A stretch of 21,283 nt of DNA from Microcoleus sp. (GCA_042408215.1 JAYFMW010000002.1:1-21283), one strand, 5' to 3'. Counted from the stretch's first letter, positions 4,528 to 20,728 are shown. Numbers and translations: made by a program. Notes: generated by a model not told the origin, from the letters alone.

Positions 4528-4670
4528 GACTTTTGCTACGGAAACACTTCTGATGGTAACGGTATCTGTCTACAATATCAAGTATGTCTATTAAAGTCTG
4601 TTTAACTGCCTTTTGGTCGCAGGTCTGTCGCTACGCTTCTCAAAAGGTTTGTAGAGAATCGCTGTTTTTA

Positions 4671-4706
4671 GATACCCGACTTCATTAAAGTGCAGCGGGT
4701 ATCTGA
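4671..4706. repeat. Imperfect REP-like palindrome AGATACCCG...CGGGTATCT
   Basis: tagatacccgacttcattaaagtgcagcgggtatctg. Confidence 0.55.
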
Positions 4707-4760
4707 GTATTCTGTTTTTTTAGGTGGGCTGACTTATCTGTGGTGTCGGAAACACAAACC

Positions 4761-4908
4761 CTAGGGCGTGTTTTCAAACTACTGATTATGAACCATATCT
4801 CTCGAAGATCCCCCTAAATCCCCCTTAAAAATGGGGACTTTGAGACTCTTTCTCCCCCCTTGTTAAGGGGGGTCGGGGGGGATCTTCGAGTTGGAAAACA
4901 ACCCCTAG
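4761..4908. mobile_element. MITE-like element overlapping the GST 3' end
   Basis: ctagggcgtgttttcaaact (4761-4780) / agttggaaaacaacccctag (4889-4908); CTAG at both ends; internal gatccccctaaatcccccttaa...ttaaggggggtcgggggggatc core. Confidence 0.75.
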
Positions 4909-5556
4909 ATTACCAGATTCCCACCTTGGGTATTTCTGCATCACACGGGTGTAAATTTCCGAGTCTACAAACGCTGCTAACCAAGCTTGCAAATGCGGCC
5001 AGGACTGTTGGTTGAACCAAATTTGATCGACCTGAGCGAATTGACGAACAAAAGGTGCGATCGCCCGATCGGCCAAAGCCACAGAATTACCAAATAAATA
5101 TGTTGTCTTGCTTAACATTGCGTTGAGTCTAGCCAGATCTAAAGCACCCGACGCCCGATGGACAATTGCATCAGTGCCTTCGTAACGGTTAGGGTATTTA
5201 TAGCGATCGAGATCGGCTTTAAATCCACCATCAAATTCAGCGATTAGTTCTAACATTTCTGCAACCGAACCTTGCTCTGGCATTAACCATTTTTCAGGAT
5301 CATTTTTTGCCAAAGCCCACAACATGATATCGATACTTTCATCTAATACACGCCCGTCGATATCAATTAATACCGGCACCGTACCTTTCGGAGATACATC
5401 CAACATTTCCTGCGGTTTATCACGCAAAACAATCTCGCGTAACTCACACACTTGACCGCTCACAATCAACGCGCATCGCGCGCGCATCGCATAGGGACAG
5501 CGGCGAAAAGAATACAAAATTGGGTATACTGAAATGCTATTAACTTGTTGTATCAT
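4825..5556 (-). CDS. Glutathione S-transferase family protein
   Basis: LYSFRRCPYAMRAR, SPKGTVPVL, ESIDIM, LDRYKYPNRY, AIAPFVRQFA. Start set at ATG 5556 (AGGA upstream, overlapping the trhO stop). C-terminal tail comes from the MITE. Confidence 0.88.
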   Translation of the reverse strand: MIQQVNSISVYPILYSFRRCPYAMRARCALIVSGQVCELREIVLRDKPQEMLDVSPKGTVPVLIDIDGRVLDESIDIMLWALAKNDPEKWLMPEQGSVAEMLELIAEFDGGFKADLDRYKYPNRYEGTDAIVHRASGALDLARLNAMLSKTTYLFGNSVALADRAIAPFVRQFAQVDQIWFNQQSWPHLQAWLAAFVDSEIYTRVMQKYPRWESGNLGVVFQLEDPPRPPLTRGEKESQSPHF

Positions 5557-6487
5557 CTGGTTTTTCCTGGGAATCGTAACGAGCACCAATATGTACTTGG
5601 TTGCGACCTTTAGCAAGTTCAATTTGACGTTGCCGCTCAGATAAACCTTTTTTTTTCGCTGCGGTTTTTGAGTCATGACAATGAGGACAACTCACGCCCA
5701 GCACAAATAATTCCGAAGCCTTATCTTCCTGACTAATCGGGTTGCGACAAGCTCGACAAAGTTCATATTCACCGGGCTTTAACCCATGCACAACTGAAAC
5801 GCGCTCATCAAACACAAAACATTCGCCTTCCCAACGACTTTCTGCTGACGGCACTATTTCCAAATATTTCAAAATTCCGCCTTCCAGATGATAGACTTGA
5901 TCGAAACCTTGACTACGCAAAAATGCTGTAGATTTCTCACACCGAATGCCGCCCGTGCAGAACATCGCTACCTTGGGTTTATGGCGTAAGGCAGTTTCTT
6001 GCCGCACCCATTCTGGTAATTCCGAAAAGCTTTTTGTTTTGGGATCGATCGCGCCTTTAAAAGTGCCGATCGATACTTCGTAGTCGTTACGCACATCAAC
6101 CACAACCACATCAGGATCGTCCAACAGTTTGTTCCATTCTTCTGGCTTGACATACTCGCCAGCCATCAGGTTTGGATTAATGTCCGGTACACCCATAGTC
6201 ACGATTTCGCGCTTCAAGCGTACTTTTAGGCGATAAAAAGGTGCTTTTTCCGAGCAAGATTCTTTGTGTACCAAATCAGCCAAACGGGAGTCACGGCGCA
6301 GGAATGCCAGCACTGCTTGCACGCTTTTCGGCGAGCCTGCAATTGTGCCATTGATACCTTCTTGGGCCAGCAAAATAGTGCCTTTGACGTTGTTTTCGTT
6401 GCAGCAGGCGAGCAGCGGTGCTCTGAGTTCGGCAAAATCCGATAGTTCAACGAATTTATACAATGCAGCGGTTAAGAAATAAGTCAT
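5540..6487 (-). CDS. trhO: Rhodanese-domain tRNA uridine(34) hydroxylase TrhO (YceA/UPF0176)
   Basis: ALYKF, GTILLAQEGINGT, LKVRLKREIVTMG, DVRNDYE, FCTGGIRCEK, LEGGILKY, CFVFDERV. Confidence 0.92.
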   Translation of the reverse strand: MTYFLTAALYKFVELSDFAELRAPLLACCNENNVKGTILLAQEGINGTIAGSPKSVQAVLAFLRRDSRLADLVHKESCSEKAPFYRLKVRLKREIVTMGVPDINPNLMAGEYVKPEEWNKLLDDPDVVVVDVRNDYEVSIGTFKGAIDPKTKSFSELPEWVRQETALRHKPKVAMFCTGGIRCEKSTAFLRSQGFDQVYHLEGGILKYLEIVPSAESRWEGECFVFDERVSVVHGLKPGEYELCRACRNPISQEDKASELFVLGVSCPHCHDSKTAAKKKGLSERQRQIELAKGRNQVHIGARYDSQEKPDDTTS

Positions 6488-6684
6488 TTATTTGGTAAAT
6501 GTTCGATGGGAAAAAAGTTACCACTCATCATAGCGAAATGCAAGTATATAGCATATTTTGCAACAATTTGTTACCGAAATTTTCGAGATAATAATTAGGT
6601 TTGGTTGCCCGATAACTGAGTTATTGCTAATTTTAGATCTCCCTCGGTATCAATGCAGGTTTGTTTGGGAAGGCAAATTGATTG

Positions 6685-6912
6685 CTAAAGGGATTCAAAG
6701 CTGGCGGTGAAACCTTTTATGGTGAGGCATTCTTCCGTGAATTCCTCTGCGTCATTGACGTTTTCGAGCTGATATTCCATGATCCGCTGTCCGTCGCCTT
6801 TCATCTTTTTGGAGGAGAGTGGCGTGCCCGGATATTTGGCAGCGATGGCTTTGAAGTCTTTGGAATGGGTATCCCAGCTTTCGGCAGAACAGTTAATGAT
6901 TACACGCCACAT
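6685..6912 (-). CDS. Small hypothetical protein (75 aa)
   Basis: Clean ATG-start ORF with AGGA upstream and protein-like composition. Confidence 0.65.
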   Translation of the reverse strand: MWRVIINCSAESWDTHSKDFKAIAAKYPGTPLSSKKMKGDGQRIMEYQLENVNDAEEFTEECLTIKGFTASFESL

Positions 6913-7005
6913 GATTAAATTCCTGGTTGGGTTTGGTTTGCGAATAGTCTGGATCTTATTGTGTCACGATCGGGTAAATGGCAGGCGCGATCGCGGAAGT
7001 CGGTT

Positions 7006-7344
7006 TCACGACACTGCAAATTCGGTGATGCGTCGCCTATTTTCCGATTTGAAGCCTAGAACAATCTGCTGTTTGGGAATTAAGAGCGCTACAAGTTCAC
7101 TCGCAACACCATCTTCTGTACCGTCTTGTTGAATCCAGATTTTGTGATTAATGATATCCATATGAATCAGGACTCCATAAATTCGTCGCTGCTATTGCCA
7201 GCCAATTTCAATCAGTAAATATCGCTCGTTTTTTTCATCTATAATTAATTGTGGTTGGGTTTCCTGGTCGTTTTTCATAAATTCGATATAGTCTTCTAAG
7301 ACGTTAATAACTACCTGTTTTAAGCTGATGGTTATGGTATCCAT
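7006..7344 (-). pseudogene. xisI: XisI protein gene with an internal amber stop (absent from the ORF track)
   Basis: Manual translation: MDTITISLKQVVINVLEDYIEFMKNDQETQPQLIIDEKNERYLLIEIGWQ*QRRIYGVLIHMDIINHKIWIQQDGTEDGVASELVALLIPKQQIVLGFKSENRRRITEFAVS; TAG at 7192-7194. Confidence 0.88.
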
Positions 7345-7527: not shown

Positions 7528-9903
7528 GTGGCACTAAGCTCCATGAGCAAAAATACTCCAACAATTTCTTACTCAGTTAAGGGTTTGAAGAATTCAGCAG
7601 AAATTCTTATCGATCCTTGGGGAGTACCTCATATCTATGCTTCGTCCTTCTTTGATGCTTTTTTTGTACAAGGATTTAATGCCGCACGCGATCGACTGTG
7701 GCAGATTGACTTGTCGAGACGGCGAGGCTTAGGGCTGCTTTCCGAGGTATTCGGTCCCAATTACCTGGAACAAGACACAGCCACCAGACTGTTTCTCTAT
7801 CGGGGGGATATGCACAAGGAATGGTCAGCCTATGGCTCAAATGCTCAAGACATTGCCACAGCTTTTGTCAATGGCGTGAACGAGTATGTCGAGATAGTAA
7901 ACCAAAACCCCGATCTCATGCCTTGGGAGTTTCAATTACTTGGGTATAAGCCTGCTTTCTGGTCTCCAGAGGATGTGGTTCGGATTCGCACCCACGGATT
8001 TTGGTTTAACCTCGAAAGTGAAGTCACTCGCGCCCAAATTGCCTGTCAGTTCGGTCTCGAAGTCGATGAATTCCGAAAACAACTTGAGCCGGAGTGGAAA
8101 ACGGAAATTCCGCAAGGGTTAGATCCGTGTTTGATTCCTAAAGACGTGCTTCATCTCTACACTCTAGCGAAACAGGGCGTAACCTTCACCAAAGAATCCT
8201 TGGGAGCCGTTGGAGATGATTCTGGTCAGTTCAGCGGACTGTCTGTCGCTCAAAGCATTGAACATTTGGCAGGAGGAAGCAATAACTGGGCAATTTCTCC
8301 CCAATTGACGGCTACGGGTCGTCCAATTCTCGCCAGCGACCCCCATCGAACTCTTTGTGTTCCTTCGCTCCGCTATATCGCCCATCTGGTCGCCCCTGGT
8401 CTAAATGTGATTGGTGCTGGCGAACCAGGCTTACCGGGCATATCCATTGGACACAACGATCGCATAGCCTTCGGTCTGACACTTTTTCCGATCGACCAGG
8501 AAGATTTGTACGTCCACCAGACCAACCCAGACAACCCAAACGAGTATCACTACAAAGGAGGCTGGGAAGCTATACAGATCGTAGAAGAAGAAATCCCCGT
8601 GTGTGGGAGTACACCTGTGAAGGCAACGCTCAAGTTTACCCGTTACGGACCAGTCATTTACGAAGACAAGCAGAAACATACCGCCTTCTCCGTTGGGGCA
8701 GTTTGGCTGCAACCGGGTATGGCTCCCTACTTTGGCAGTATCCAGTATATGCAGGCTACTACCTGGTCAGAGTTTCTCGCCGCCATGAACTCTTGGGGGG
8801 GACCGGCGGTGAATCAGGTCTATGCTGACGTTGATGGCAACATTGGCTGGAAAACAGCGGCACTAGCCCCGATCCGCCCAAATTGGGATGGTTTGCTGCC
8901 AGTACCGGGAGATGGACGCTACGAATGGGCAGGCTTCTACAACATTGATCGACATTTTCCTGTGGAGTACAACCCCAAACGGGGCTGGGTGGCAACAGCC
9001 AACCAAATGAATCTACCGTCAGATTACCCATACAAAGAACGCAAACTGGGATTTGATGAATGGTCAAATCCATGTAGATATCAGCGGATTGCCGAGAACC
9101 TCAACGAGGGTTCGAGTTTAACATTGCTCGATTCTCTGCGCCTGCAAACAGACTTTCTGTCCATTCCTGCTCGGAGGGTAGTAAATCTTCTCCAAGGGCT
9201 GGAGTCAGACAATCTCAAACTTGCCCAAGCTCTAGAAATGCTCAAGAATTGGGATTGTGTGATGGGCATAGAATCAGCCCCTGCCGCTCTGTTTGAAGTA
9301 TGGTTCAGTCAGTATCTGTGTCCGGCAGTTATGGCTAAACTTCTACCGCCTGAAGCACACAAACTAATCGGTGCGGGAGATCCTGCTGTTGCGATCGATG
9401 TGCTGGAAAATCCTGACGTGAGGTTGGGAGTCAATTCGCAGGCGCTTAGGGATGACATTCTCCTGTCTAGTTTAGTAGCCGCAATTGAGAAAGTTGAAAA
9501 AACTCTGGGTCTAGATCGATCGCAATGGGCTTGGGGTAAACTACACTATGTCTTTTTAGAACATCCGCTCTCTAACCTGGTGGATGAGCAAACTAGAGTA
9601 CAGATCGATATAGGGCCAAAGCCAAAGGGAGGCAGTAGTTTTACTGTCAACAAGACCCAGTACCGAACCAACGATTTCCGTACCATCGTCTCTGCTTCAT
9701 TCCGGATGATTCTTGATGTCGGAAACTGGGATAATTCTCTAGCTTTGAACATACCAGGACAGTCAGGAGTTGCAAGTAGCACACACTACAAAGATTTATT
9801 TCCCCTTTATGAACAAGAACAAGCCTTCCCTTTACTGTACAATCGAGAGGCGATCGAGAAAGTTGCTCAGCAGCGAATTGAACTAAAATCTTTAAATCTT
9901 TAA
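7528..9903 (+). CDS. Penicillin acylase family Ntn-hydrolase (peptidase S45), no evident signal peptide
   Basis: DPWGVPHIYA, QGFNAARDRLWQ, GSNNW (autoproteolysis Ser-1beta), ILASDPH, NQVYADVDGNIG, PGQSG; alternative start ATG 7543. Confidence 0.93.
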   Translation: MALSSMSKNTPTISYSVKGLKNSAEILIDPWGVPHIYASSFFDAFFVQGFNAARDRLWQIDLSRRRGLGLLSEVFGPNYLEQDTATRLFLYRGDMHKEWSAYGSNAQDIATAFVNGVNEYVEIVNQNPDLMPWEFQLLGYKPAFWSPEDVVRIRTHGFWFNLESEVTRAQIACQFGLEVDEFRKQLEPEWKTEIPQGLDPCLIPKDVLHLYTLAKQGVTFTKESLGAVGDDSGQFSGLSVAQSIEHLAGGSNNWAISPQLTATGRPILASDPHRTLCVPSLRYIAHLVAPGLNVIGAGEPGLPGISIGHNDRIAFGLTLFPIDQEDLYVHQTNPDNPNEYHYKGGWEAIQIVEEEIPVCGSTPVKATLKFTRYGPVIYEDKQKHTAFSVGAVWLQPGMAPYFGSIQYMQATTWSEFLAAMNSWGGPAVNQVYADVDGNIGWKTAALAPIRPNWDGLLPVPGDGRYEWAGFYNIDRHFPVEYNPKRGWVATANQMNLPSDYPYKERKLGFDEWSNPCRYQRIAENLNEGSSLTLLDSLRLQTDFLSIPARRVVNLLQGLESDNLKLAQALEMLKNWDCVMGIESAPAALFEVWFSQYLCPAVMAKLLPPEAHKLIGAGDPAVAIDVLENPDVRLGVNSQALRDDILLSSLVAAIEKVEKTLGLDRSQWAWGKLHYVFLEHPLSNLVDEQTRVQIDIGPKPKGGSSFTVNKTQYRTNDFRTIVSASFRMILDVGNWDNSLALNIPGQSGVASSTHYKDLFPLYEQEQAFPLLYNREAIEKVAQQRIELKSLNL

Positions 9904-9915
9904 ACTGATATTGAT

Positions 9916-10842
9916 ATGGAAGCATCTCTCAGTAAACCGGACAATGCCTACCCAATCTGTTTTCATAACGGGAATTTTGTTTCATGGGAACAGGCTGTCA
10001 TCCACGCCAATTGCTTGTCAATGCGATATGCGCTGTCAGTGTTTGAAGGAATTCGGCTTTATCGGCAGCCTCCTATTGACGAATTAAAGCCTTTTGCTTT
10101 AGAGGCTCACATCGATCGCCTGGGTAGATCCCTGGCGCTGATGCTTTTACCAGATCCGGGAATTAGCCAGATCGATTCTATTATTAAAGACCTCGTGATT
10201 AAAAACCAAATCATTGAAGACACTTACATTCGAGTAGCCGTCAATACGATAAATTTTGGTGAACTCGCATCGCCACCTACGCCATCCCTCACCGTCACTG
10301 GGACAAAAATGGGGCGCAAGCGATGGTTGGCACAGGGAAAAAAAATGAAAGTTTCTATCAGTAAATGGCAGCGCACTGCTGAGCTAGCCTTTCCCTCTGC
10401 TGCCAAAAATATCTCTAACTATGCAGGACCGCGCTTGGCATTGCTCGAAGCGATCGCGGCAGGATATGACAGTACAATTTTAATCAACCATGAAGGTTAT
10501 CTGTGCGAGGCTCCCACGGCGGCGCTATTTATTATCCAGGATGAAGAAGTTGTGACTCCGCCTTTGAGCGAAGGAATTCTCCCCAGCATTACCCGAAAAA
10601 CTATTTTGCAGTTGTGCGATTTACTCGGCATTCGGGCTACAGAGCGACGCCTGCGTCCGGCTGATGCATACCTCGCTGATGAGGCATTTTTATGCGGCAC
10701 TGGCATAGAAATTGCCCCGATAGCTTCCTTTGACGGACATTCTTTAAAGAAAACGGCAGAATCTCCAATCACAAATAAGATCTGCCAAGCCTATTTTCAG
10801 TTAGTCAGAGGCGAAATAAGCTGTTATACCAATTTAATGTGA
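9916..10842 (+). CDS. PLP-dependent class IV aminotransferase (BCAT/DAAT/ADC-lyase fold)
   Basis: YALSVFEGIR, HIDRL, AAKNISNY (PLP Lys), GILPSITRKT, ADEAFLCGT; 12 nt after the acylase stop. Confidence 0.9.
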   Translation: MEASLSKPDNAYPICFHNGNFVSWEQAVIHANCLSMRYALSVFEGIRLYRQPPIDELKPFALEAHIDRLGRSLALMLLPDPGISQIDSIIKDLVIKNQIIEDTYIRVAVNTINFGELASPPTPSLTVTGTKMGRKRWLAQGKKMKVSISKWQRTAELAFPSAAKNISNYAGPRLALLEAIAAGYDSTILINHEGYLCEAPTAALFIIQDEEVVTPPLSEGILPSITRKTILQLCDLLGIRATERRLRPADAYLADEAFLCGTGIEIAPIASFDGHSLKKTAESPITNKICQAYFQLVRGEISCYTNLM

Positions 10843-11098
10843 AGTTGCACATATCTCGATCCCCCTAAATCCCCCTTAAGAAGGGGGACTTTGAGAAGAA
10901 TCTTGTCCCACCCCCTACTCCCCTTATTAAGGGGGGTTAGGGGGGATCAGATTCTATGCAGCCTCATAAAAAATTGGTATTAGTCATTTAAATCACATCT
11001 TCCGGTGGTTTCGACAGTTCAACAGGCTCAGTGCAACGCTTCGCTCAACCATCTGGTTTGAAAAAATCGAATATGTGATTTAAATGTTCGACAGCTTA
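10817..11098. mobile_element. Two nested MITEs between the aminotransferase and ATP-grasp genes
   Basis: Outer TIR taagctgt[..]gtcatttaaatcacat / atgtgatttaaatgttcgacagctta. Inner element 10826-10980 (ataccaattt..gttgca / tgcagc..aaattggtat) inserted at a TA in the outer left TIR and carrying the CCCCCTTAAGAAGGGGG core. Confidence 0.75.
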
Positions 11099-11146
11099 AC
11101 CAGGCTCTAAATCGAGTTGTTAATTAAAATGGAGATAGGAACGATC

Positions 11147-12514
11147 ATGATCGATTGGTATGCAACGGGAGCAATGCTAGCTTATATTCATCAATTTCGA
11201 TCTCAAGTTTCTGAAATGATGGAGGAGCATCTTTCACAGTCACCTAAGTTCCAGAATATCAGCTACCCAATCACACCATTACCACTGTTTTTATCTGGGG
11301 AAGAACTTGACAACCATCAAAATAAAGTTGAGCGGTATGTGGTTATCCTGGAAAAATTGTGTCGGCTTTACAACGAACACCAAGAAATTCGCGACTATTT
11401 TGGACTCAAACCAGAAGAGGATAAATTAGTTCGGTTAGATTGTGGTTATAACCCCCAGATTCGTATTTGCCGATTAGATGGTTACTTCGATCAAAAAGAT
11501 GGTAGCTTAAAGATTCTGGAGAATAATGCAGATTCTCCCGCAGGCACCCTTTTTACCCCAAGATTAAATGGTTTTGTCAGTCAAGTTATTGAACGGGGGC
11601 TGAAAGATCAAACCATTCAAACTAAAAGTATGCCCTTAGATAATCCCACAACATTCTTGGAGCAACTCCTAGCTACCTACCGGGAGTATGGTGGCACCCA
11701 AGAGCAACCACGACTGGCAATTTTACAGGTTGCGGGCAAGTCAAATATTGAAAGTCAGGAAATGGCACGGGAGTTTACCAAACACGGTATACCAACGTCG
11801 ATCGCAGATCCTAGAGAATTTACTTTTACTCGGACAGGTGCAGAAGTTAACGGTCAACCCATCCATTTTGTCTGGAATAAGATTAACACTTGTTTTTGGG
11901 ATTGGAATTCCCTTCAAGTTGAACATCCGAATTTGCTGTCTGAATGGATAGAGGCTATTTCCGAACGAAAAATCTGCCATGTTAATTCATTTGCCTCTCG
12001 ATATGTAGCAGAAAACAAGCGGTGTATCTCCTTTTTTCAAGAACTCGAATATAAACAGTTTTTCAAAGAGGAAGAACACTCACTATTACAGTCGCTTTTG
12101 CCTTGGTCGCGAAAACTCGAACCTGACAAACAAGTCGTCTATGAAGACAAAGACTGGAATTTGGCAGAACTACTTAGCGATCGACAAGCAGATTTTGTTT
12201 TGAAGCAACCTTATGATATACGCGGAGACGGTGTGACAATTGGACGGAGTGTCGATCGAAAGACGTGGCTCGATCGGATGAGTTTGGGAATGCGCCAAGG
12301 CTTTGTCGTTCAACGCTACATTCAACCGATGACCTATCCAATTATTTCTTTCCAAAGAAAGCCAGTTGTATTACCAATGAATGTCAGCATTGATTCATTT
12401 ATGTTTGGTGGTAGATTGGTAGGGTTTGGTTCTAAAGCCAGCTTGGAAGATAAAGTAAATCTGTTCAAAGGAGGGCAAAAATTAGCGGTAAAAGTTGTAG
12501 AAGCTATAGGGTGA
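11147..12514 (+). CDS. ATP-grasp amide ligase, glutathionylspermidine-synthase-like/circularly permuted type
   Basis: CRLDGY, KILENNADSPAG (ExNxDxP), VLKQPYDIRGDGVTIG, VVQRYI; start at ATG 11147 (GGAG/AGGA upstream) or 11129. Confidence 0.8.
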   Translation: MIDWYATGAMLAYIHQFRSQVSEMMEEHLSQSPKFQNISYPITPLPLFLSGEELDNHQNKVERYVVILEKLCRLYNEHQEIRDYFGLKPEEDKLVRLDCGYNPQIRICRLDGYFDQKDGSLKILENNADSPAGTLFTPRLNGFVSQVIERGLKDQTIQTKSMPLDNPTTFLEQLLATYREYGGTQEQPRLAILQVAGKSNIESQEMAREFTKHGIPTSIADPREFTFTRTGAEVNGQPIHFVWNKINTCFWDWNSLQVEHPNLLSEWIEAISERKICHVNSFASRYVAENKRCISFFQELEYKQFFKEEEHSLLQSLLPWSRKLEPDKQVVYEDKDWNLAELLSDRQADFVLKQPYDIRGDGVTIGRSVDRKTWLDRMSLGMRQGFVVQRYIQPMTYPIISFQRKPVVLPMNVSIDSFMFGGRLVGFGSKASLEDKVNLFKGGQKLAVKVVEAIG

Positions 12515-12524
12515 ACTACTCCAA

Positions 12525-13742
12525 CTAAGCTGACGCTATAGTTGGAGCTTCTGTACTCATAGGCGAGTGCCGCAAATGAGACTTTCGTCCCATCTTTGGT
12601 CTTACCTCCCCTCCTACAGCAGAGGCGGCTGAACCTTCCGCCTTGAGCAATCTGATTCCCTCTGCCCGAATGTTGGTCGCTGCATTGCCATCCCTATCGT
12701 GATGAGTGCCGCAGTGGGGGCAAGTCCATTCCCTCACGCCTAACGGCATCTCACTCATTTGATAGAAACAATTCGAGCAGAGTTTGGAACTAGGGAACCA
12801 TCGATCAATCTCAACTAACTTCCCACCTTTGCGGTCTAACTTATAGGCTAAGAAATTAGTGAACATTCCCCATCCACAGTCAGATATTGCTTTGGCCAAA
12901 TTGTGATTACGAACCATGCCCTTGACATGAAGATTCTCTACGATGACAGCTTGGCTATCGCTGACCAACTTGTAACTAAGTTTATGTAGAAAATCTTGCC
13001 TTGAATTGCTAACCCGTTCGTATACTTTGGCAACAACTTTGCGATATTTATTTCGGGAATTACTCCCTTTTTGTTTCCGGGCTAATTTTTTCTGCTTCCG
13101 TTTCAGGTTTCTCTCGTGTTTGGCAATATGTTTAGGGTTGTCGTATTTAGAAACCTTTTCGCCGTCTGTAACCACAGCGAAATGTTTTAGCCCTAAGTCA
13201 ATCCCATATATTTTGCCTTCTACTGTAGTAGGATTTTCCCCTTCTACTTCCGTCAAAATAGATGCCAAGTATTTACCTGATGGGGTTTTGCTAATAGTGA
13301 CAGTCTTTATTTTCCCCTCAATAGGTCTATGTATCTTGGCTTTAACTACTCCGATTTTACCGGGTAGTTTGACATTGCCTTCAACAACTCCAACGTTTTG
13401 AGGATACTGAATAGACTGTTTACCGTGCTTAGATTTGAACCGAGGGAATCCGGCTCTACCTTCAAAAAAGTTCTTATACGCTGTGGTTAGATTGAGTGTT
13501 GTAGCTTGCAAAACTTGGCTATAACAATCGGCTAGCCAGCGGGTATCTTCTGCTTTTTTGAGTGCTGGTAAAAGGGCATTGAGTGCTGAACGTCCAAGCC
13601 CAAAACCTGTTTCTTTATAAGTTTCAATCGACTTATTCAAAGCATAGTTCCACCACCAACGAGAGCATCCAAATACTTGGGCTAGTAGTGCTTGTTGTTC
13701 TTTTGTTGGGTATAAACGGACTTTTACGGTTTTGTGCAACAC
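12525..13742 (-). CDS. tnpB: RNA-guided endonuclease TnpB (canonical IS605 OrfB)
   Basis: KVRLYPTKEQ HTH; RuvC GIDLGLK, VIVENL, DRDGNAA; CSNC/CPHC zinc finger; AAGGAGG SD upstream. Confidence 0.95.
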   Translation of the reverse strand: MLHKTVKVRLYPTKEQQALLAQVFGCSRWWWNYALNKSIETYKETGFGLGRSALNALLPALKKAEDTRWLADCYSQVLQATTLNLTTAYKNFFEGRAGFPRFKSKHGKQSIQYPQNVGVVEGNVKLPGKIGVVKAKIHRPIEGKIKTVTISKTPSGKYLASILTEVEGENPTTVEGKIYGIDLGLKHFAVVTDGEKVSKYDNPKHIAKHERNLKRKQKKLARKQKGSNSRNKYRKVVAKVYERVSNSRQDFLHKLSYKLVSDSQAVIVENLHVKGMVRNHNLAKAISDCGWGMFTNFLAYKLDRKGGKLVEIDRWFPSSKLCSNCFYQMSEMPLGVREWTCPHCGTHHDRDGNAATNIRAEGIRLLKAEGSAASAVGGEVRPKMGRKSHLRHSPMSTEAPTIASA

Positions 13743-13814
13743 TCAATATCACCTCCTTGGTTTTGGATTATATCACAATATACACTTAGCGATAAGACTA
13801 ATCTAGAAATATTT

Positions 13815-13859
13815 GGAAATTGAGAGGTACATCCTTTATGGATGTACCTCTCAATTTCC
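13815..13859. repeat. Perfect 20-bp inverted repeat inside the IS left region
   Basis: ggaaattgagaggtacatcc-tttat-ggatgtacctctcaatttcc. Confidence 0.85.
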
Positions 13860-13922
13860 CGGCTTATATCCCCACCTAACATTCGTATAGGTGGGGACTT
13901 ACGCCGATTTTGTTAAATTTGG

Positions 13923-15032
13923 CTAACGGCGAATCACGGCTTCTTGAGTCATGTACTGATTCAAGTTCTCCCAGCAAATGGTGCTACCAAATCCAGGTTG
14001 CTCCAAAGGCTGCACCATGCCAGGAGCTACCAACTCAACAGCATCATTCACAATCTCCTGCCGGAAATATCGGTTACTCGCACTGACATCACTAGGATAT
14101 GTAACGTTATCCAAGGTAGCCAGCGCAATGTTTGTCCATCTTCCAATCCCCATTTCATACTTGGCACCTATAAAAATAGGAATTCCAGCCTCCTTGCACG
14201 CATCATGAATTCTTAACGCTTCAGAAATACCCCCCACGCGCCCAATTTTCAGGTTAACAATTCGCGCCACTTTCAATTCGATGATTTGCCGAATATCTTC
14301 TAACGACACTACCGCTTCGTCTAAAGCGATCGGTGTAGTCATTTGCGCTTGGAGTTTTGCCGTTTCATAAAGCGTTCGTGGAGGAAATGGCTGCTCCAGA
14401 CACATTAAGTTAAACCGATCGAAACTTGCTAAGTAGGAAATGTCTGACGGTGAGTAAGCTCCATTAGCATCCGCCAAAAGCGCAATGTCGGGAAATACCG
14501 ATCGGATGGTTTCCAACGGTTCTACATCCCATCCTGGCTTGATCTTGATTTTGAACCTATGATAGCCAGCCTCAAGTGCTTGTTGAAGTTCACCAATCAA
14601 TTCCTCCTTGCTCTGGTGGACACCAATTGTAGCTCCAGACTTTACTGGTCGAAACTCACCGCCGATAAGTTGGTAGAGCGGAACCCCTTGGATTCGACCG
14701 TACAAATCCCAACAAGCACATTCCAAGGCAGCACGTGCTTCGTAATGACCGCGAATGTGAGAGAAAAAATCGGCAACTTGGTTGGGACAATCAATGGTTC
14801 GATCTAGCAGAATTGGTGCAAGATACCTTTGAATCACCAGCCAACAAGTCTCTATAGTTTCGTAGTTATAGTAAGGCGTTTCCATGGCAGTACATTCGCC
14901 ATATCCACTCCTCCCTTCACTTTGAACCTCAACAATGAGCTTAGTCCATTCTTCAAAGCGCTCCCAGCGATTGGAAAACGGACGATGAAGGGGAATCTTC
15001 ACAAATCTCAGCACAATTGTGTCGATATTCAC
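13923..15032 (-). CDS. Enolase-superfamily enzyme, OSBS/N-acylamino acid racemase (NAAAR)-like
   Basis: GYGEC, KIKIKPGWD (KxK), ADANGAY, EQPF, LDE, NLKIGRVGG; GTG start at 15032 overlaps the aldolase TGA (GTGA). Confidence 0.88.
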   Translation of the reverse strand: MNIDTIVLRFVKIPLHRPFSNRWERFEEWTKLIVEVQSEGRSGYGECTAMETPYYNYETIETCWLVIQRYLAPILLDRTIDCPNQVADFFSHIRGHYEARAALECACWDLYGRIQGVPLYQLIGGEFRPVKSGATIGVHQSKEELIGELQQALEAGYHRFKIKIKPGWDVEPLETIRSVFPDIALLADANGAYSPSDISYLASFDRFNLMCLEQPFPPRTLYETAKLQAQMTTPIALDEAVVSLEDIRQIIELKVARIVNLKIGRVGGISEALRIHDACKEAGIPIFIGAKYEMGIGRWTNIALATLDNVTYPSDVSASNRYFRQEIVNDAVELVAPGMVQPLEQPGFGSTICWENLNQYMTQEAVIRR

Positions 15033-16045
15033 AGTAATTTTAACCCACATATAGTTTCATAAAGGCTAACTTCCATCGAGGAATTAACCGCTTCAACTTC
15101 ATTAGTCAACAGCTTTTCCATTAGATTTAATGATGGTAAATTAGCTTCTTTAGCAGTCTCCTCTATTGCTTGAATCTTGTCTATATTTAAGTTCATTATT
15201 GATGAAAGTACATTTTTACATTTGTTGATGCTGTTGAAAGTTAACCATTTATTTATGTACTCTTGTGTTATTTGCGCCAATTGAGAAAGATTGTATGTCG
15301 AACCCTTGCACCAATTCAGGTAAGTAGCAATGAGTTCTGTCCTCAAATTACCTCCCCCTTTGCCCAATCCACCAAGAGTACTATCCAATATGTGGACTCC
15401 TGCATCAATCGCTGCTACTGAGTTGGCAAATGCTAAGCTAAGTCCGTCGTGAGCGTGGAAGCCTATCTGAATAGATAGGTTTTCTGAAAGTTCTCGCACG
15501 GTAGCATAAACCTGAGAGGGAAATAAGCTTCCATTTGAGTCAGCTATGTAGAAAAAATCCGCTCCAAATGCTTCTGACTTCTTTCCATAAGACACGATCG
15601 AGTCTAAGGGGATTTCGCTGACTCTGATCAGATTTACCGAACAAAGCATTCCCCAGTCTTTAATAGCCTCTATATGCTTCCTAACGACATCAAAATTTTC
15701 ATGATTTTCATGTTTCACAACAACTCGAACTAGAGAGATGTTGAGATCGCTTAACATCTTATACTCTTTTAGAGTAACCCGATCCAGATGAACCATAACA
15801 ACCAGTTTGGGCAAAGTTCCTGCATCCATGAAGCCAGCTAAATATTCAGGATCGCTCACTGCTGGTCCTTGTCTGAACCTTCCAGAATAATCAATCTGGC
15901 TCGGTCGATAATATCCCAACTCGGCGTATTCAATATTAGCTTTGCCAAACCCTTTAACAATGCTATAGGCTTCATTGTCGCTAAAGTTATGATCGTTGAC
16001 GTATCCACCGTCTCGAAGAGTCACATCTAACAGTCTAACTGACAT
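15029..16045 (-). CDS. DRE-TIM metalloenzyme, 4-hydroxy-2-oxovalerate aldolase (DmpG)-like
   Basis: LDVTLRDGGY, YIADSNGS, GFHAHDGLSLAFANS, GLGKGGGNL. Confidence 0.85.
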   Translation of the reverse strand: MSVRLLDVTLRDGGYVNDHNFSDNEAYSIVKGFGKANIEYAELGYYRPSQIDYSGRFRQGPAVSDPEYLAGFMDAGTLPKLVVMVHLDRVTLKEYKMLSDLNISLVRVVVKHENHENFDVVRKHIEAIKDWGMLCSVNLIRVSEIPLDSIVSYGKKSEAFGADFFYIADSNGSLFPSQVYATVRELSENLSIQIGFHAHDGLSLAFANSVAAIDAGVHILDSTLGGLGKGGGNLRTELIATYLNWCKGSTYNLSQLAQITQEYINKWLTFNSINKCKNVLSSIMNLNIDKIQAIEETAKEANLPSLNLMEKLLTNEVEAVNSSMEVSLYETICGLKLL

Positions 16046-16156
16046 AAGTAAAGCAATTTGTGGAGATTAACGTTACCTGGATTAATAACTAAAAAGCGAG
16101 CGACACCTCTCTCTAATTTGGTATCGCTTCAGGAATTACATTCGTTTATAGCAATT

Positions 16157-16942
16157 TCACCTTTGAGACACCAATTCTTTTTCCTGCCACAGCTTCCAAC
16201 GAAATGGAGGTTCAGTTGGATTATAGTAACGTTCTAAAATAACATCAAAATGAAGATGCCTCAGATCAATTGCTTTGGCTAAATAGTCAACTGCCTGTTG
16301 CTGTAACTTGGGTGTTGTACAATACAAACGCAGAATTTCTTTAGCTGTACTGGCATGATCGTCTTCCAACTCACTAATATGTTCTTGGTCGCCTTCACTC
16401 GAAGCATGGTGGGTGAAGAAATCATACCCTTTGTGCGGCAGTTGATAAACATCCCGCATCACTTTTTGCATACTTTGCCCTTGAGCATTGATAATTGGAG
16501 GCTGTCCCTCCATTAGTAAAAGCACCGAGGCGACACCAGCACTAAAGTGGACAGTAGAGTCATTACAAACATGAAGATTGTGTTCGATAACCGCACGAGT
16601 TTCTGGTATAATCGGTGCATTTTCAATAGTTTCTTTTGATACACCAACCTGTTCGCCAAAGTCTACAAAAGATTGCAAGTGTCGGCAGGAATTGGTCAAA
16701 GCACCAGTTTCTTCCTCATAAATGTTTGTAATTAGGCCGCATCGGAGTCCGTAATCATCAATTCGGGAAGCTATCCCCAGAATATTTCTCGTCCAAAAGT
16801 TCTTAATAGGCCATCGATTAATGACGAACTCCTGCAAAAGTTTCTGACTAGCTTTACCATCCATAATTAATTGGTAAAGAGGGCTAGTCATCTTCCTGCG
16901 CTCCCAAATCATTTGCTCCAAGGTTTTGATGAAGTCGTTCAC
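16157..16942 (-). CDS. Heme-oxygenase-like diiron oxidase (CADD/PqqC/TenA-like HDO)
   Basis: NIYEEETG...RH, LMEGQ, FFTHH...EDDHA candidate metal-ligand set; start moved to GTG 16942 behind AAGGA. Confidence 0.8.
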
Positions 16943-17091
16943 TAATTTATTCCTTATGCTATGGACGAGGTTAGAAAAAAATGAAAGCAAGTTAGGTAAG
17001 GGTTTGAGGCTAATTGGCACTTGGTGACAGCTACAATAACACATCCCAATGCATATTTGTTTAACTTGTCAGGAATGACCTTCCTTGCTCA

Positions 17092-18444
17092 TCACTTAAT
17101 TCGGTACGTTTCGACAAACCGTGCTGGCGATCGCACTAAACTGCCATTCCAGTTTTCGATACAACTTTCAGCGAAAGTTTTGCCTGTTTCTACAATTGTT
17201 TTGAGGGGTTCCAAGTATTCTAGTACTTTGGGATCTTCCAGACCTAAATTAATCCGGTGTTGAAGTCCCTCTTCTGCTAGTCGAATGACTTCTTTTGCCA
17301 GTGAGGCTATCGGTTTTCCACAGTACTGTGCTGAAAGTCCTCGCCGTGCAGCATCAGCTCGTGCTACTTGGTGTTGTTCGATCGTACAATCTTTGAGTAA
17401 TTGCCAGACAGAATCGCAGGAGGGACGGTGATAGAGAATACCTACCCAGAAAGCGGGAACGGCTGGAATTGCCTCAAAAGGAGGACCATCGGGAGCCCGC
17501 AACTCAATAGTCTCGCGGGTGCGAACATCCGGCCAAAGCTGACAGAGGTGGTTTCGCCAATCAACTAGAGTAGGATATCGTCCATCAGGAAATCCGTCTG
17601 CCAGCACCGCTGCAAACGTACAACCTTCTCCACTTTTGTACTCTCCATCGGTTGCGTAAAAAATCACTTCATTGTTAAGCGCCCAGTCGATATAGTCATC
17701 TATCGTTACATCCTCTTTCAGCGCCCTATGGATCAGACCGCTTCTTCGGGAATCGGTCTTGAACCAATGCTCAGTGCGACGTGACAGCGAACCGCGCGAT
17801 TCTCCATCCTCAAGCGGAGAATTAGCAAACAAGGCAACAACTATTGGTGTCAAGGACACTGATGTGCGAAGTTTGCAGATTAAATCCTCTTCCGAAGTAT
17901 AGTCTAGTGTTGTCTGGGTAGAAATAGTATGAGCCATAATCTGCTCTCCACCTGAACCAGGATCGCCCAGGGCAGTGAAGTGTTCACGCATGAACTTACC
18001 GTATGGCTTGGGCATCCAATTAGCATTCTCAACGGTATTGAAAGGGAAAATACCACCAGGAACTAGAGCCAAATTAAGCGTACTGGCAGTTTCAGCTAGC
18101 CTCCGGAGAGATTGCTGCATCGTTACAATCAGCTCGATCAGGTTCTGTGTGACTGGCGAACAGTATTCGATAGCCCCACCATGCTCAAATGTGATTTTGG
18201 CACCATCATTCATATCTACTTGTGTGAGTAATTCACCCTTGTAGGCGGGCTGTCCAATTCCATCGCGAACAAATGCTTCAAGCAACGCTCGCATACCCCT
18301 TTGCCCCTCATACGGCAGCGATCTCCCTGTGTCTCGATCGAGCACGGCTATCTCAATTTCGAGACCGATTTTTTCATCGACTCCTGGCTGCTTGTGAAAC
18401 AGGCTGCGTAAATCTCCTCTTGTGAGCTTTGATGACATGTTCAT
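17092..18444 (-). CDS. Glutamate--cysteine ligase family 2 (GCS2/EgtA-like) gamma-glutamyl ligase
   Basis: IGLEIE, TFEHGGAIEY, WMPKP, STQTTLD, ALFANSP, WPDVR, IELRAPD, AFWVGILY. Confidence 0.88.
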   Translation of the reverse strand: MNMSSKLTRGDLRSLFHKQPGVDEKIGLEIEIAVLDRDTGRSLPYEGQRGMRALLEAFVRDGIGQPAYKGELLTQVDMNDGAKITFEHGGAIEYCSPVTQNLIELIVTMQQSLRRLAETASTLNLALVPGGIFPFNTVENANWMPKPYGKFMREHFTALGDPGSGGEQIMAHTISTQTTLDYTSEEDLICKLRTSVSLTPIVVALFANSPLEDGESRGSLSRRTEHWFKTDSRRSGLIHRALKEDVTIDDYIDWALNNEVIFYATDGEYKSGEGCTFAAVLADGFPDGRYPTLVDWRNHLCQLWPDVRTRETIELRAPDGPPFEAIPAVPAFWVGILYHRPSCDSVWQLLKDCTIEQHQVARADAARRGLSAQYCGKPIASLAKEVIRLAEEGLQHRINLGLEDPKVLEYLEPLKTIVETGKTFAESCIENWNGSLVRSPARFVETYRIK

Positions 18445-18473
18445 TAAGTAAGGTTGTTAGTGAGAATTTTACC

Positions 18474-18512
18474 CCATGTAGAGACGCACTGAATGAAAGT
18501 GTCTCTACATGG
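18474..18512. repeat. REP-like palindrome CCATGTAGAGAC...GTCTCTACATGG
   Basis: 12-bp perfect arms just upstream of the GCS2 start. Confidence 0.7.
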
Positions 18513-18535
18513 TTTATCGGTTAATCAATCAGCTT

Positions 18536-18692
18536 TAGGGCTTACGTATTGACAGAATGAACGGTATAGGGTATGATGTTGGGGCATTAATCTCTGATTG
18601 TTCCAATATGAGCGATTGCGATCCGCGCACTGCCCCTTGGTCGAATTCCGTCAATACACATCAGTTCCAATTTGTACAGTGGGTAAATCCTA
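18536..18692. mobile_element. Degenerate MITE of the AGGACTTACGCA family in the divergent promoter region
   Basis: tagggcttacgtattgacagaat ... attccgtcaatac ... tgggtaaatccta. Confidence 0.5.
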
Positions 18693-18748
18693 GCCTAGTA
18701 AGAATTTTCGCATAACTTGGTATAGTAAGAAAGATAGACCTCGATTTT

Positions 18749-18768
18749 CCCCCCCCCCCAAAAAAAAA
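18749..18768 (+). repeat. C11-A9 homopolymer tract
   Basis: cccccccccccaaaaaaaaa, followed by tggggaaa which can pair with ttttcccc. Confidence 0.85.
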
Positions 18769-18843
18769 TGGGGAAATTCCCATAAGGATTAGTATTTCGA
18801 GAAAAATCAATCCAAAGTTGTAGTATTTTTCCTCAACAATGTA

Positions 18844-19833
18844 ATGGTGACGAATCCAGTAGCACTGCCAGAGCCACAGACAAAATTGACCTCAAGTCTG
18901 ATACCAGTTAGTTTATTGTTAGTAGCAGTATTAACCCTGTCCTTCGCAGCAATATTCATCAGATGGAGCGAACAGTACATCGGTCCTAGTGCCACAGTTT
19001 TTAATCGTTTCTGGATATCCTTTGTCATTCTAGGACTAGTGCAAGGAATCAGATCCTTCATTTCCCTATTTTTTCGTGATTCTCCCACACAACAACAGAC
19101 TTACACCCTAGAAGATGTGTTGCTTTTGCTAGCATCGGCTGCTGTAACATCTATTTCCCAAATTTCCTGGGCTTGGTCTGTGACTCAAACTAGTGTTGCC
19201 AACTCTAATTTACTGCATAACTTAGCACCTATTTTTACTACTCTGGGTGGATGGTTGCTATTGGGTCATCGCTTTAATAGCAAATTCTTGATAGGAATGG
19301 CTCTTGCTATGGGGGGTGCGTTCACTATTAGCATTCAAGATTTGCACATTGCTGGCGATCACCTTGTTGGTGATGTTTTGGCTTTACTCTCTGCCGTGTT
19401 TTATGCAGGGAATTTTCTAGTCTCAGAAAAACTAAGAGTTAAGTTTTCCACAGCAACGATATTACTTTGGTCTTGTTTTTTCAGAAGTTGTATAACCTTG
19501 CCAGTAGCTCTATTCACTGAAAATCAAATATTTCCTTCCTCCTTACAAGGATGGTTAGCAGTTATTTCCTTAGCTGTTGTTTGCCAAGTCATCGGTTCAG
19601 GAATACTTATTTATAGCGTCAAGCGGTTTTCATCAGGGTTTACTTCTATGTTTCTTCTGCTAGAGCCGATTATTACAGCTATACTTGCCTGGCTCGTCTT
19701 TGATGAAAGCCTAAGCCCTCTCAACTTGTTAACTTTTTTCGTGGTTTTAGTTGGTATATACCTAGCTAAATCCGGTCAAGGAGCTGATAAGGTAGAAACT
19801 CAAATTGTTGGGGTAGATATGGCAACTGAATAA
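18844..19833 (+). CDS. EamA/DMT-family transporter (about 10 TM)
   Basis: LSFAAIFIR, VFNRF, TSVANSNLL, GDVLALLSAVFYA, LLEPIITAILAW. Confidence 0.92.
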   Translation: MVTNPVALPEPQTKLTSSLIPVSLLLVAVLTLSFAAIFIRWSEQYIGPSATVFNRFWISFVILGLVQGIRSFISLFFRDSPTQQQTYTLEDVLLLLASAAVTSISQISWAWSVTQTSVANSNLLHNLAPIFTTLGGWLLLGHRFNSKFLIGMALAMGGAFTISIQDLHIAGDHLVGDVLALLSAVFYAGNFLVSEKLRVKFSTATILLWSCFFRSCITLPVALFTENQIFPSSLQGWLAVISLAVVCQVIGSGILIYSVKRFSSGFTSMFLLLEPIITAILAWLVFDESLSPLNLLTFFVVLVGIYLAKSGQGADKVETQIVGVDMATE

Positions 19834-19868
19834 GGTGGCAGATAAACAATACCTAAGTATCATATAAA

Positions 19869-20021
19869 ACTAGCCCTTTCAAGCTGGGTCAAAATCACCG
19901 GAAATTTTGCCCAATTGGGGGCTTTTCATCTTTGTGTATTTGGGGTGCAAAAGTCAAGTTATTGACCACTAAGACACTAAGACAAATACACTATTTAAAT
20001 TGACACATTAAAAGGGCTAGT
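19869..20021. mobile_element. Possible MITE with imperfect ~25-bp TIRs
   Basis: actagccctttcaagctgggtcaa / ttgacacattaaaagggctagt; internal actaagac repeats. Confidence 0.45.
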
Positions 20022-20053
20022 CCTATTATAATTATAGTATTTATATAGTATTT

Positions 20054-20728
20054 ATGATGTCACCAACAAACTTGTACGCAGGTTATATGCGCCTGTCTAC
20101 GGCTGAGGTATCCGATAGCCTCAACTCATTTGGATACTGTGGTGCTTTGAAGGGTATCCGAGCGCACCAATGGGGACTAAAATTTTTTGGACCCGCTTTT
20201 ACAGTAACCAGAACTACCAATGACGATCCAAATTACTGCGAGGCCAGTGAATTTCTTGACCAAGTCCCGGCTGGATATGTGATCGTTATTGATAATCTGG
20301 GAATTACTGACAGTACCTGTTGGGGGGGAATTCTGACAGCTTGCGCCAAGAACAAGCAGATTCAAGGAACAGTCATCAATGGTGTTTACCGCGATGCTGA
20401 AACAGTTCGAGCATTAAACTACCCAGTATTTTCCAAAGGTGTATTCATGGTGACTGGAAAAGGGAGAACTCGATTGAAAGGACTGAATATACCTGTGAAT
20501 ATTGAAGGCGTTACCATTCATCCTAGCGATCTAATTTTTGGGGATGCCAATGGAGTTGTAGTTATTCCCTTTGAAAAAGCTGAAGAAGTGCTTACTAGAG
20601 CAGAGCACATTCAAGATGTAGAAAAGCAAATTGAAAGGTTAGTTGTGTTTGAAGGACTACCTCTGCGTGAAGCCCGTGAAATCATGAAATACAACCAACT
20701 TACTAAGATCTCCGGCTCACACTCCTGA
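20054..20728 (+). CDS. RraA-family / 4-hydroxy-4-methyl-2-oxoglutarate (HMG) aldolase-like protein
   Basis: STAEVSDSL, GPAFTV, VIVID, WGGIL, INGVYRD, DLIFGDANGVVVIP. Confidence 0.88.
   Translation: MMSPTNLYAGYMRLSTAEVSDSLNSFGYCGALKGIRAHQWGLKFFGPAFTVTRTTNDDPNYCEASEFLDQVPAGYVIVIDNLGITDSTCWGGILTACAKNKQIQGTVINGVYRDAETVRALNYPVFSKGVFMVTGKGRTRLKGLNIPVNIEGVTIHPSDLIFGDANGVVVIPFEKAEEVLTRAEHIQDVEKQIERLVVFEGLPLREAREIMKYNQLTKISGSHS

Follow-up and report, generated by a model that had tools for sequence, protein, structure and literature searches.

A mobile gene cassette of a Microcoleus contig that couples a heme-oxygenase-like diiron enzyme with amide ligases, probably for a non-proteinogenic amino acid

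The window analyzed here, which is the whole 21,283-base contig C2 of a 7.36 Mb Microcoleus sp. genome (GCA_042408215.1, JAYFMW010000002.1), carries nine genes between positions 7528 and 20728 that constitute a real, mobile and uncharacterised cassette of the kind that combines a heme-oxygenase-like diiron enzyme (HDO) with amide ligases. It is probably a biosynthetic amino-acid cassette, and we favor the view that it is portable and makes a non-proteinogenic, probably acidic and possibly toxic amino acid that would serve as an antimetabolite or building block. Biosynthesis is preferred over a housekeeping role because the genes are rare, separate copies of menC, CADD and gshA exist in the genome, and related loci have non-ribosomal peptide synthetase (NRPS) genes, ligases and major facilitator superfamily (MFS) transporters as neighbors. 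An earlier interpretation along these lines, made from the sequence alone (the sequence-only reading), is partly supported, with step order and product being the parts that we infer.

The nine-gene cassette

Calling of open reading frames (ORFs) in the window returned nine genes in the order and orientation that had been proposed, all of them real and with open frames. Genes for an acylase, an aminotransferase and an ATP-grasp ligase (plus strand) converge on those for a racemase, an HMGL-like aldolase, the HDO and a GCS2 ligase (minus strand), from which genes for an EamA transporter and an RraA-family aldolase diverge (plus strand). A profile scan agreed with the family assignments of eight of the nine, with Pfam E-values of 2e-196 (Penicil_amidase), 4e-47 (Aminotran_4), 5e-41 (MR_MLE), 3e-31 (HMGL-like), 1e-23 (Haem_oxygenas_2), 1e-31 (GCS2), 8e-36 (EamA) and 2e-36 (RraA-like). 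The ninth, described as a GspS-like ATP-grasp, matches GspS, glutathione synthetases and Cp1B by fold, but has no match in Pfam or NCBIfam. NRPS, polyketide synthase and carrier-protein families had no match in a Pfam scan of 15 window ORFs. The label "[15 protein letters not shown]" of the sequence-only reading is thus apt for this window but has to be limited to it, because relatives sit beside NRPS genes (in the fetched regions of L021, L028, L045, L047 and G1074).

The nine-gene set is not a chance assembly, because all nine genes recur, rearranged, in Argonema antarcticum, with protein identities of 91-98% and with the GCS2 and RraA genes relocated. Housekeeping counterparts (menC, CADD and gshA) were found elsewhere in the Microcoleus genome, each over its family cut-off. 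No described pathway was found for the set: a literature search, from which most subscription papers were missing, gave no description of it.

A conserved core with interchangeable modules

Eleven actinomycete loci from 10 genomes, found via the HDO alone (G041, a 2 kb contig, was left out), define the part of the cassette that is kept across lineages. The genes for HDO, HMGL aldolase, aminotransferase, ligase and RraA are complete in 10 of them, while the acylase, GCS2 and EamA genes were detected in none of the 11 at the threshold used and turned up in cyanobacterial copies only. Gene order was compared over 30 loci, some of which are close kin: the HDO gene is next to that of the HMGL aldolase in 28 of 29, and the aminotransferase gene next to that of the ligase in 29 of 29. 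The genes of the proposed nine-gene unit do travel together, but the conserved unit comprises five genes plus an optional racemase.

Accessory genes were sought with queries (M81, M20, second ligase, MFS) taken from these same 11 loci. Six loci have both the racemase and an M81 peptidase, and the other five have neither of the two. In five loci an M20 peptidase is accompanied by a second permuted ligase and by an MFS transporter; G1234 has both sets. Given this co-occurrence, the uncapping role that we propose below for the acylase is apparently filled by unrelated hydrolases in other lineages. Two low-GC loci (L055 and L056) have a C45 hydrolase with RimK-like and other ligases. Recurring neighbors also include amino-acid ligases, MFS transporters and B3/4, DUF2000, YjgF, PhzF and GNAT proteins; the latter five may, from their family functions, be protection against an amino-acid analogue.

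These patterns bear on the possibility that the core is one pathway and that the genes for acylase, GCS2 and EamA ride along as passengers on the mobile island that carries it. The absence of all three from the 11 actinomycete loci fits such a patchwork, as does the presence of GCS2 relatives without the core in G1146, and the cyanobacterial copies have to be counted as one event because they are recent and near-identical. However, the three genes have stayed with the core through the rearrangement in Argonema, and in other lineages unrelated hydrolases, ligases and exporters take over these roles, so we give passenger status only about the credence of a long shot.

Several of the loci have features of their own. 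G1487 has two HDO loci (L135 and L137), one with the full core and the M20, ligase and MFS genes. The other is incomplete and has genes for aldolase, HDO and M81 and a racemase gene that is divided over two frames. In G1074 (L119:11790-18949), two genes for lantibiotic-dehydratase N-terminal (PEARL-like) proteins, an AMP ligase gene and a gene for a pyridoxal phosphate (PLP) enzyme converge on the cassette, and two NRPS genes lie upstream, in L118. Genes for an MbnB/TglH-family enzyme, a methyltransferase and radical SAM proteins follow the cassette in L043 (13686-18751). In L021, 7.5 kb upstream of the cassette, a second, unrelated HDO gene (1720-2541) is accompanied by genes for an amidohydrolase, an aminotransferase and two GNATs.

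The HDO

The core HDO gene (16157-16942, minus strand) has a likely GTG start at 16942 with an upstream AGGA, and its product is predicted from the structural model and ligand set to be of the 3His/3carboxylate type. The model (pLDDT 94) has CADD as its top fold match (Z 25.0, root-mean-square deviation 1.9, 210 aligned), with FlcD (Z 21.2), UndA (21.0) and HrmI (20.6) as other matches, which identifies a heme-oxygenase-like helical bundle. The metal ligands E77, H88, E145, H179, E193 and H196 are present in 120 of 120 HDO sequences, and the first four align with those of CADD. The protein is below the TIGR04305 cut-off (56 vs 200 bits), whereas the genome's own CADD, on C6, scores 290; its identity to BesC, whose reaction is described in PMC13108848, is 14%. 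The model points to an uncharacterised subfamily nearest to CADD, with a predicted diiron cofactor. Six arginines and two lysines are conserved in at least 97% of the 120 sequences.

Of 554 candidates, the HDO search retained 293 proteins; the top 120 are 56-97% identical and come from Streptomyces, Micromonospora, Frankia, Kitasatospora, Nostoc linckia, Kofleriaceae and Reinekea. In a quick tree the window HDO pairs with that of Nostoc linckia (support 91), and no donor is indicated. A complex prediction for HDO and aldolase scored 0.00, which counts neither for nor against binding.

The likeness to the self-sacrificing para-aminobenzoate synthases CADD and NePabS extends to the nearest fold, the same six ligands and the same tyrosine position, since Y23 aligns with CADD Tyr27 and is kept in all 120 sequences. 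It could therefore be proposed that the HDO excises its own Tyr23 and passes hydroxybenzaldehyde to the adjacent aldolase, giving a hydroxy-homotyrosine. Yet no conserved lysine occurs at positions 153-157 of the 120 sequences, the region of the CADD amine donor Lys152, and relay residues are altered: CADD Tyr141 is Met in 120/120, Tyr170 is Phe in 105/120 and Tyr47 is Arg in 120/120. The extra invariant Arg and Lys residues and the separate CADD of this genome are further differences, and a single-turnover source would be costly for a secreted product. We regard self-sacrifice as very improbable. Only about a dozen HDOs have been functionally validated (PMC13108848), and an enzyme with such a gene context is not named in the parts covered of a 2026 HDO review.

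The ATP-grasp ligase

The core ligase gene (11147-12514, plus strand) probably starts at ATG 11147, also with an upstream AGGA. Fold search with its model (pLDDT 89) returned glutathione synthetases, Cp1B and GspS (E 8e-18 to 3e-11), indicating a circularly permuted ATP-grasp of this fold, and the Atlas groups it with circularly permuted ATP-grasps. Its sole sequence match in the PDB is Cp1B (9CJN, E 2e-5). Residues R109, D111, E125 and N127, conserved in at least 95% of 33 sequences, share the R-x-D...E-x-N pattern of Cp1B (R139/D141/E163/N165), in which these residues are needed and which couples a diacid to L-amino acids, as described in PMC12568646. The ligases form a distinct subfamily, with 36 representatives above 320 bits and the next at 271.

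The match to Cp1B, the installer of epoxysuccinate, is also an argument for the main rival to our interpretation, an E-64-type logic in which the aldolases and HDO would make a reactive diacid, the ligase would fix it on an amino acid, and the resulting amide would be the end product, with racemase and acylase tailoring or recycling it. Second ligases or AMP ligases in several loci are consistent with this. On the other hand, the aminotransferase gene lies directly before the ligase gene in all 29 loci, a fixed position which suggests that the amine partner is probably made in place, and an amide hydrolase recurs in most complete loci. We therefore hold this rival to be unlikely, although it is more credible than catabolism, self-sacrifice of Tyr23 or a passenger role.

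Aldolases and aminotransferase

The core HMGL-like (DRE-TIM) aldolase gene (15029-16045, minus strand) encodes an RDGGY motif instead of the RDGSH of DmpG. The product is a DRE-TIM enzyme by its residues, with R11 and H197/H199 invariant and D12 at least 90% conserved in 26 sequences, and its best PDB match is the putative aldolase 3DXI (E 4e-32), compared to E 5e-23 for DmpG (1NVM). It is short of the DmpG family cut-off (133 vs 286 bits), and the DmpF dimerisation domain (PF09290) was not found in the genome, in a search whose control matched (1/14). The motif, the score and the missing partner speak against an identity as DmpG 4-hydroxy-2-oxovalerate aldolase.

The second aldolase of the core belongs to the RraA family (20054-20728, plus strand) and may be either an HMG/CHA-type aldolase or an oxaloacetate decarboxylase. 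The uncharacterised 3K4I is its best PDB match (E 4e-44), and the HMG/CHA aldolase 3NOJ follows at E 5e-12. HMG/CHA aldolases have the motif D-X20-R-D or G-X20-R-D-X2-E/D; the window protein has G92-X20-R113-D114 with T117. W90, G91, R113, D114, K136 and R138 are invariant in 16 sequences.

The core aminotransferase (9916-10842, plus strand) is a class IV, BCAT-like PLP enzyme with PLP lysine K164. BCAT is its best NCBIfam match, under the cut-off. K164, Y38, F43, G45, R47, Y104, R106 and G133-R134 are invariant in 27 sequences.

Probable racemase and acylase

The optional gene at 13923-15032 (minus strand; likely GTG start at 15032) encodes an enolase of the NSAR/OSBS subfamily that is probably an N-(diacyl)amino acid racemase and matches named N-acylamino acid racemases (E 6e-72 to 1e-61). 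With residues numbered from the ORF at 15050, K167/K169 form the KxK motif, and the three metal carboxylates, the second lysine and the following arginine are also present; D194, E219, D244, K268, R271 and R304 are invariant in 11 sequences. In members of this subfamily, the arginine at the place of R271 has a role in racemisation. The family-specific R28, W29 and K297 are capping-loop and pocket residues unlike those of solved members.

The acylase gene (7528-9903, plus strand) encodes an N-terminal nucleophile (Ntn) enzyme (PF01804, E 2e-196) with no obvious signal peptide at its start, as judged by eye. It is a close homolog, over its full length, of the "D-succinylase" of PDB entries 7EBY and 7EA4 (829 bits, E 4e-248, residues 5-781; the next entry scores 170 bits), with the nucleophile of its beta-chain, Ser251, in an SNNW motif. 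This partner makes a racemase the better interpretation of the enolase-fold protein, in preference to a dehydratase, and tips toward epimerisation a choice that the sequence-only reading had left between the two. Ligase, racemase and acylase, judged by their sequences, suggest a relay in which an amine is capped with a diacid, epimerised and uncapped to give a D-amino acid; we lean somewhat toward such a relay.

The racemase also exceeds the menC cut-off of TIGR01928 (303 vs 201 bits), which, together with an HDO nearest to the folate enzyme CADD and the known occurrence of DmpG, RraA and acylases in degradation, could be taken to mean that the HDO and retro-aldolases degrade or detoxify a compound, or that the genes take part in quinone, folate or glutathione synthesis. 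The housekeeping menC, CADD and gshA found elsewhere speak against this, as do the missing DmpF and the lack of an uptake system or dehydrogenase in the window, while relatives lie beside exporters, ligases and NRPS genes. A catabolic or cofactor pathway is accordingly improbable. Identity of the racemase with the housekeeping MenC was rejected, since the genome's own menC, on C26, is over the cut-off for cyanobacterial menC, for which the window racemase scores 59 vs 259 bits.

GCS2 and EamA

The accessory GCS2 ligase (17092-18444, minus strand) resembles plant glutamate-cysteine ligase (PDB, E 1e-53), is under the NCBIfam cut-offs and departs from the plant enzyme at two motifs (KGRY to KPYG and KRYLEMR to RETIELR); the housekeeping gshA (TIGR02048) sits on C6. 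The other accessory gene encodes an EamA/DMT transporter, a probable exporter (18844-19833, plus strand; PF00892), which is 91% identical to its counterpart in the Argonema cluster and 39-56% identical to paralogs elsewhere in the genome. GCS2 was found in cyanobacterial copies only, and the gamma-glutamyl part of the products first considered cannot form the core of the pathway. A GCS2 relative with 40% identity was found in G1146 (C13:95177-96520), a genus genome in which the ligase and acylase were not found.

Proposed pathway

We infer each chemical step as follows. The two aldolases would join either pyruvate or oxaloacetate to a carbonyl partner, and the aminotransferase would convert the resulting 4-hydroxy-2-oxo acid to an L-amino acid. 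The Cp1B-like ligase might then cap the amine with a dicarboxylic acid at the expense of ATP, and the HDO would oxidise the skeleton, by desaturation or C-C cleavage, before or after capping. The racemase could epimerise the capped amino acid and the D-succinylase homolog uncap the D-form, and removal of the cap from this form would pull the pathway to the D-amino acid. Finally, GCS2 may gamma-glutamylate the product for self-protection and EamA export it. This exact order of steps is doubtful. The substrate may be acidic, in view of the extra invariant arginines and lysines in the sequences of HDO, aminotransferase, racemase and RraA.

A number of observations weigh against this pathway. The racemase is present in only 6 of 11 loci, so the core can do without inversion. 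G1110 has neither accessory set, with no M81 or M20 match nearby, and metagenome loci L021, L025, L026 and L028 carry the racemase without M81. No HMGL aldolase match was found in the 20.7 kb of L045, one G1487 locus is without three core genes, and the HDO match of G1234 holds a TGA. Residue 92 of the window RraA is G, whereas it is D in most of the relatives shown. The sequence similarity to Cp1B is weak (E 2e-5), with glutathione synthetases equal to it by fold. That D-succinylase is D-selective and pairs with a racemase is general background, to which the window acylase is tied through a PDB title. Finally, the reaction of an HDO is not readable from its metal ligands (PMC13108848).

A bolder version of our proposal, which we put forward tentatively and consider less probable than its negation, is a new class of amino-acid pathway. 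The aldolases would build an acidic skeleton, on which an uncharacterised HDO subfamily would carry out a new oxidation, and the D-center would be set by an ATP-driven relay of capping, epimerisation and uncapping. Cyanobacteria would release the resulting warhead free, whereas other bacteria would ligate it into short peptides or pass it to NRPSs; it might then be an overlooked second antibiotic of fosfomycin-producing Streptomyces.

Comparison with known systems

Several free-standing pathways share parts of this logic. The Bes (beta-ethynylserine) cluster of Streptomyces cattleya reportedly likewise combines an HDO, a gamma-glutamyl ligase and an exporter in a free-standing amino-acid pathway; the window, in contrast, is without a halogenase or a PLP-dependent alkyne-forming enzyme, and its aldolases, aminotransferase and racemase have no Bes counterpart. 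According to PMC13185094 and PMC13725569, the mangotoxin mbo operon has in common an HDO, two amide ligases, a transporter, the lack of an NRPS and a residue that is added and then removed; unlike it, the window has no MboB-type reductase or deiminase, its ligase families differ, and its cluster builds its own carbon skeleton. Figure S2C of the mangotoxin paper (PMC13185094) has at least 25 types of HDO plus ATP-grasp cluster, and may include this cassette. The E-64 cp1 cluster, including the Microcoleus mfa cluster, shares a glutathione-synthetase-fold ligase with R-x-D...E-x-N (PMC12568646), but the similarity of the ligases is remote and the nine genes include no Fe/2-oxoglutarate epoxidase or ANL amide synthetase. 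In the rhizocticin branch, the aldolase RhiG, also HMGL-like, combines oxaloacetate with an aldehyde to give a 4-hydroxy-2-oxo acid and thereby shows that an aldolase of this kind can use oxaloacetate as a stand-alone enzyme (bioRxiv 10.1101/2021.04.07.438883); the window ORFs are without phosphoenolpyruvate (PEP) mutase or phosphonate genes, and add an HDO and a second aldolase.

None of the signature enzymes of these systems (halogenase, MboB reductase, deiminase, epoxidase, ANL synthetase and PEP mutase) was among the families of the window ORFs, and membership in the Bes, Mbo, E-64 and rhizocticin pathways was rejected on these grounds. Guanitoxin, tabtoxin, rhizocticin, ketomemicin and azomycin need enzymes outside the window set. 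N-succinylamino acid racemase and D-succinylase are a known pair, which the window resembles in having an NSAR-type racemase with a close homolog of the D-succinylase of the PDB titles; here, however, the cap would come from an ATP-grasp ligase rather than a coenzyme A transferase, and the pair lies in a biosynthetic cassette.

Distribution and transfer

The distribution of the cassette is sporadic, with further copies here and there in soil bacteria. Ligase and acylase were each found in 2 of 79 genomes of the genus, the same two, and GCS2 in three of the 79; the HDO profile matched 1 of 401 genomes of the class, namely this genome. In overlapping draws of actinomycete genomes the HDO was found in 2/401, 6/301, 1/21 and 4/401, the 6/301 and 4/401 draws representing two actinomycete families. 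Recent transfer involving Argonema is indicated because DNA identity is 95-98% for the cluster genes, whereas six flanking genes reach only 67-78%. The record L011 is from Microcoleaceae, and its genes on either side of the cluster are 94-96% identical to those of this genome, which places the host in that family; L011, L014, L015 and L124 are close kin and not independent evidence. Of the 20 listed sequencing runs, 13 contain at least half of the sampled words; these 13 span five studies, with freshwater sediment and microbial mats among the sources. A plasmid search gave no HDO match, and its ligase and RraA matches were remote and in unrelated contexts.

Relatives of HDO and ligase are two accession numbers apart in S. 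fradiae (ACG70819/ACG70817) and S. viridochromogenes (KOG26948/KOG26950), and the same spacing occurs in S. wedmorensis (MFE5912194/MFE5912196). The ACG708xx record is presumably the fosfomycin fosmid, with "OrfE" an unassigned gene beside it. These Streptomyces deposits are named only PqqC-like or hypothetical. The three species are the fosfomycin producers among Streptomyces, and the fosfomycin cluster comprises fom1-4 and fomA-D (PMC9088020).

Most validated HDOs gave new chemistry, and the substrate of the HDO of this cassette can be sought by reconstitution because the subfamily is tight and its five-gene context fixed. If the proposed relay is true, nature would have in the trio of ligase, racemase and D-succinylase homolog a way to D-amino acids that needs no NRPS epimerisation domain, and the trio would also be useful in biocatalysis. 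A bioactive compound may also go unmonitored in fresh water, given that the cassette moves between mat-forming cyanobacteria. Relatives in cultured strains of Streptomyces, Micromonospora, Frankia, Nostoc and Argonema make tests practical.

Other features of the window

The converging ligase and racemase genes are separated by an IS200/IS605-type insertion (12501-13793, minus strand) with a TnpB gene (12525-13742; OrfB_IS605 and guided_TnpB matches), which the sequence-only reading had overlooked. Both flanking frames are intact, the element is missing from L124, and contigs of runs X14 and X15 skip it; these two contigs stop at 18437 and 18439, where X1 carries on. In L012 and L015 the aldolase and racemase genes are separated by about 270 bases that the window lacks; here both frames are open and overlap by four bases. 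A multicopy genomic repeat (10810-10997) between the aminotransferase and ligase genes, with up to 265 matches elsewhere in the genome, is absent from the corresponding place in L012 and is no part of the pathway. An Rfam search gave 0 matches. Contigs of three RNA-labelled runs span parts of the cluster; with no silent-stretch control and possibly a single campaign behind them, they are not counted as expression.

Outside the cassette, an XisI gene just beyond the acylase (7006-7344, minus strand) has one in-frame stop, and each half matches PF08869. Between 1255 and 6487 are ordinary flanking genes for a DEAD-box helicase, a glutathione S-transferase and a TrhO tRNA hydroxylase. An IS607-type element (2805-4527, minus strand), absent in L124, has a resolvase gene, TnpA (3865-4527), and a TnpB ORF that is open for 571 codons and overlaps nearly all of TnpA. 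Positions 1-850 and 4622-6993 match the end of contig C5 (701125-708220) at 99-100% identity, which suggests that C2 is probably the continuation of C5, the two being separated by a break in the assembly or a difference between strains.

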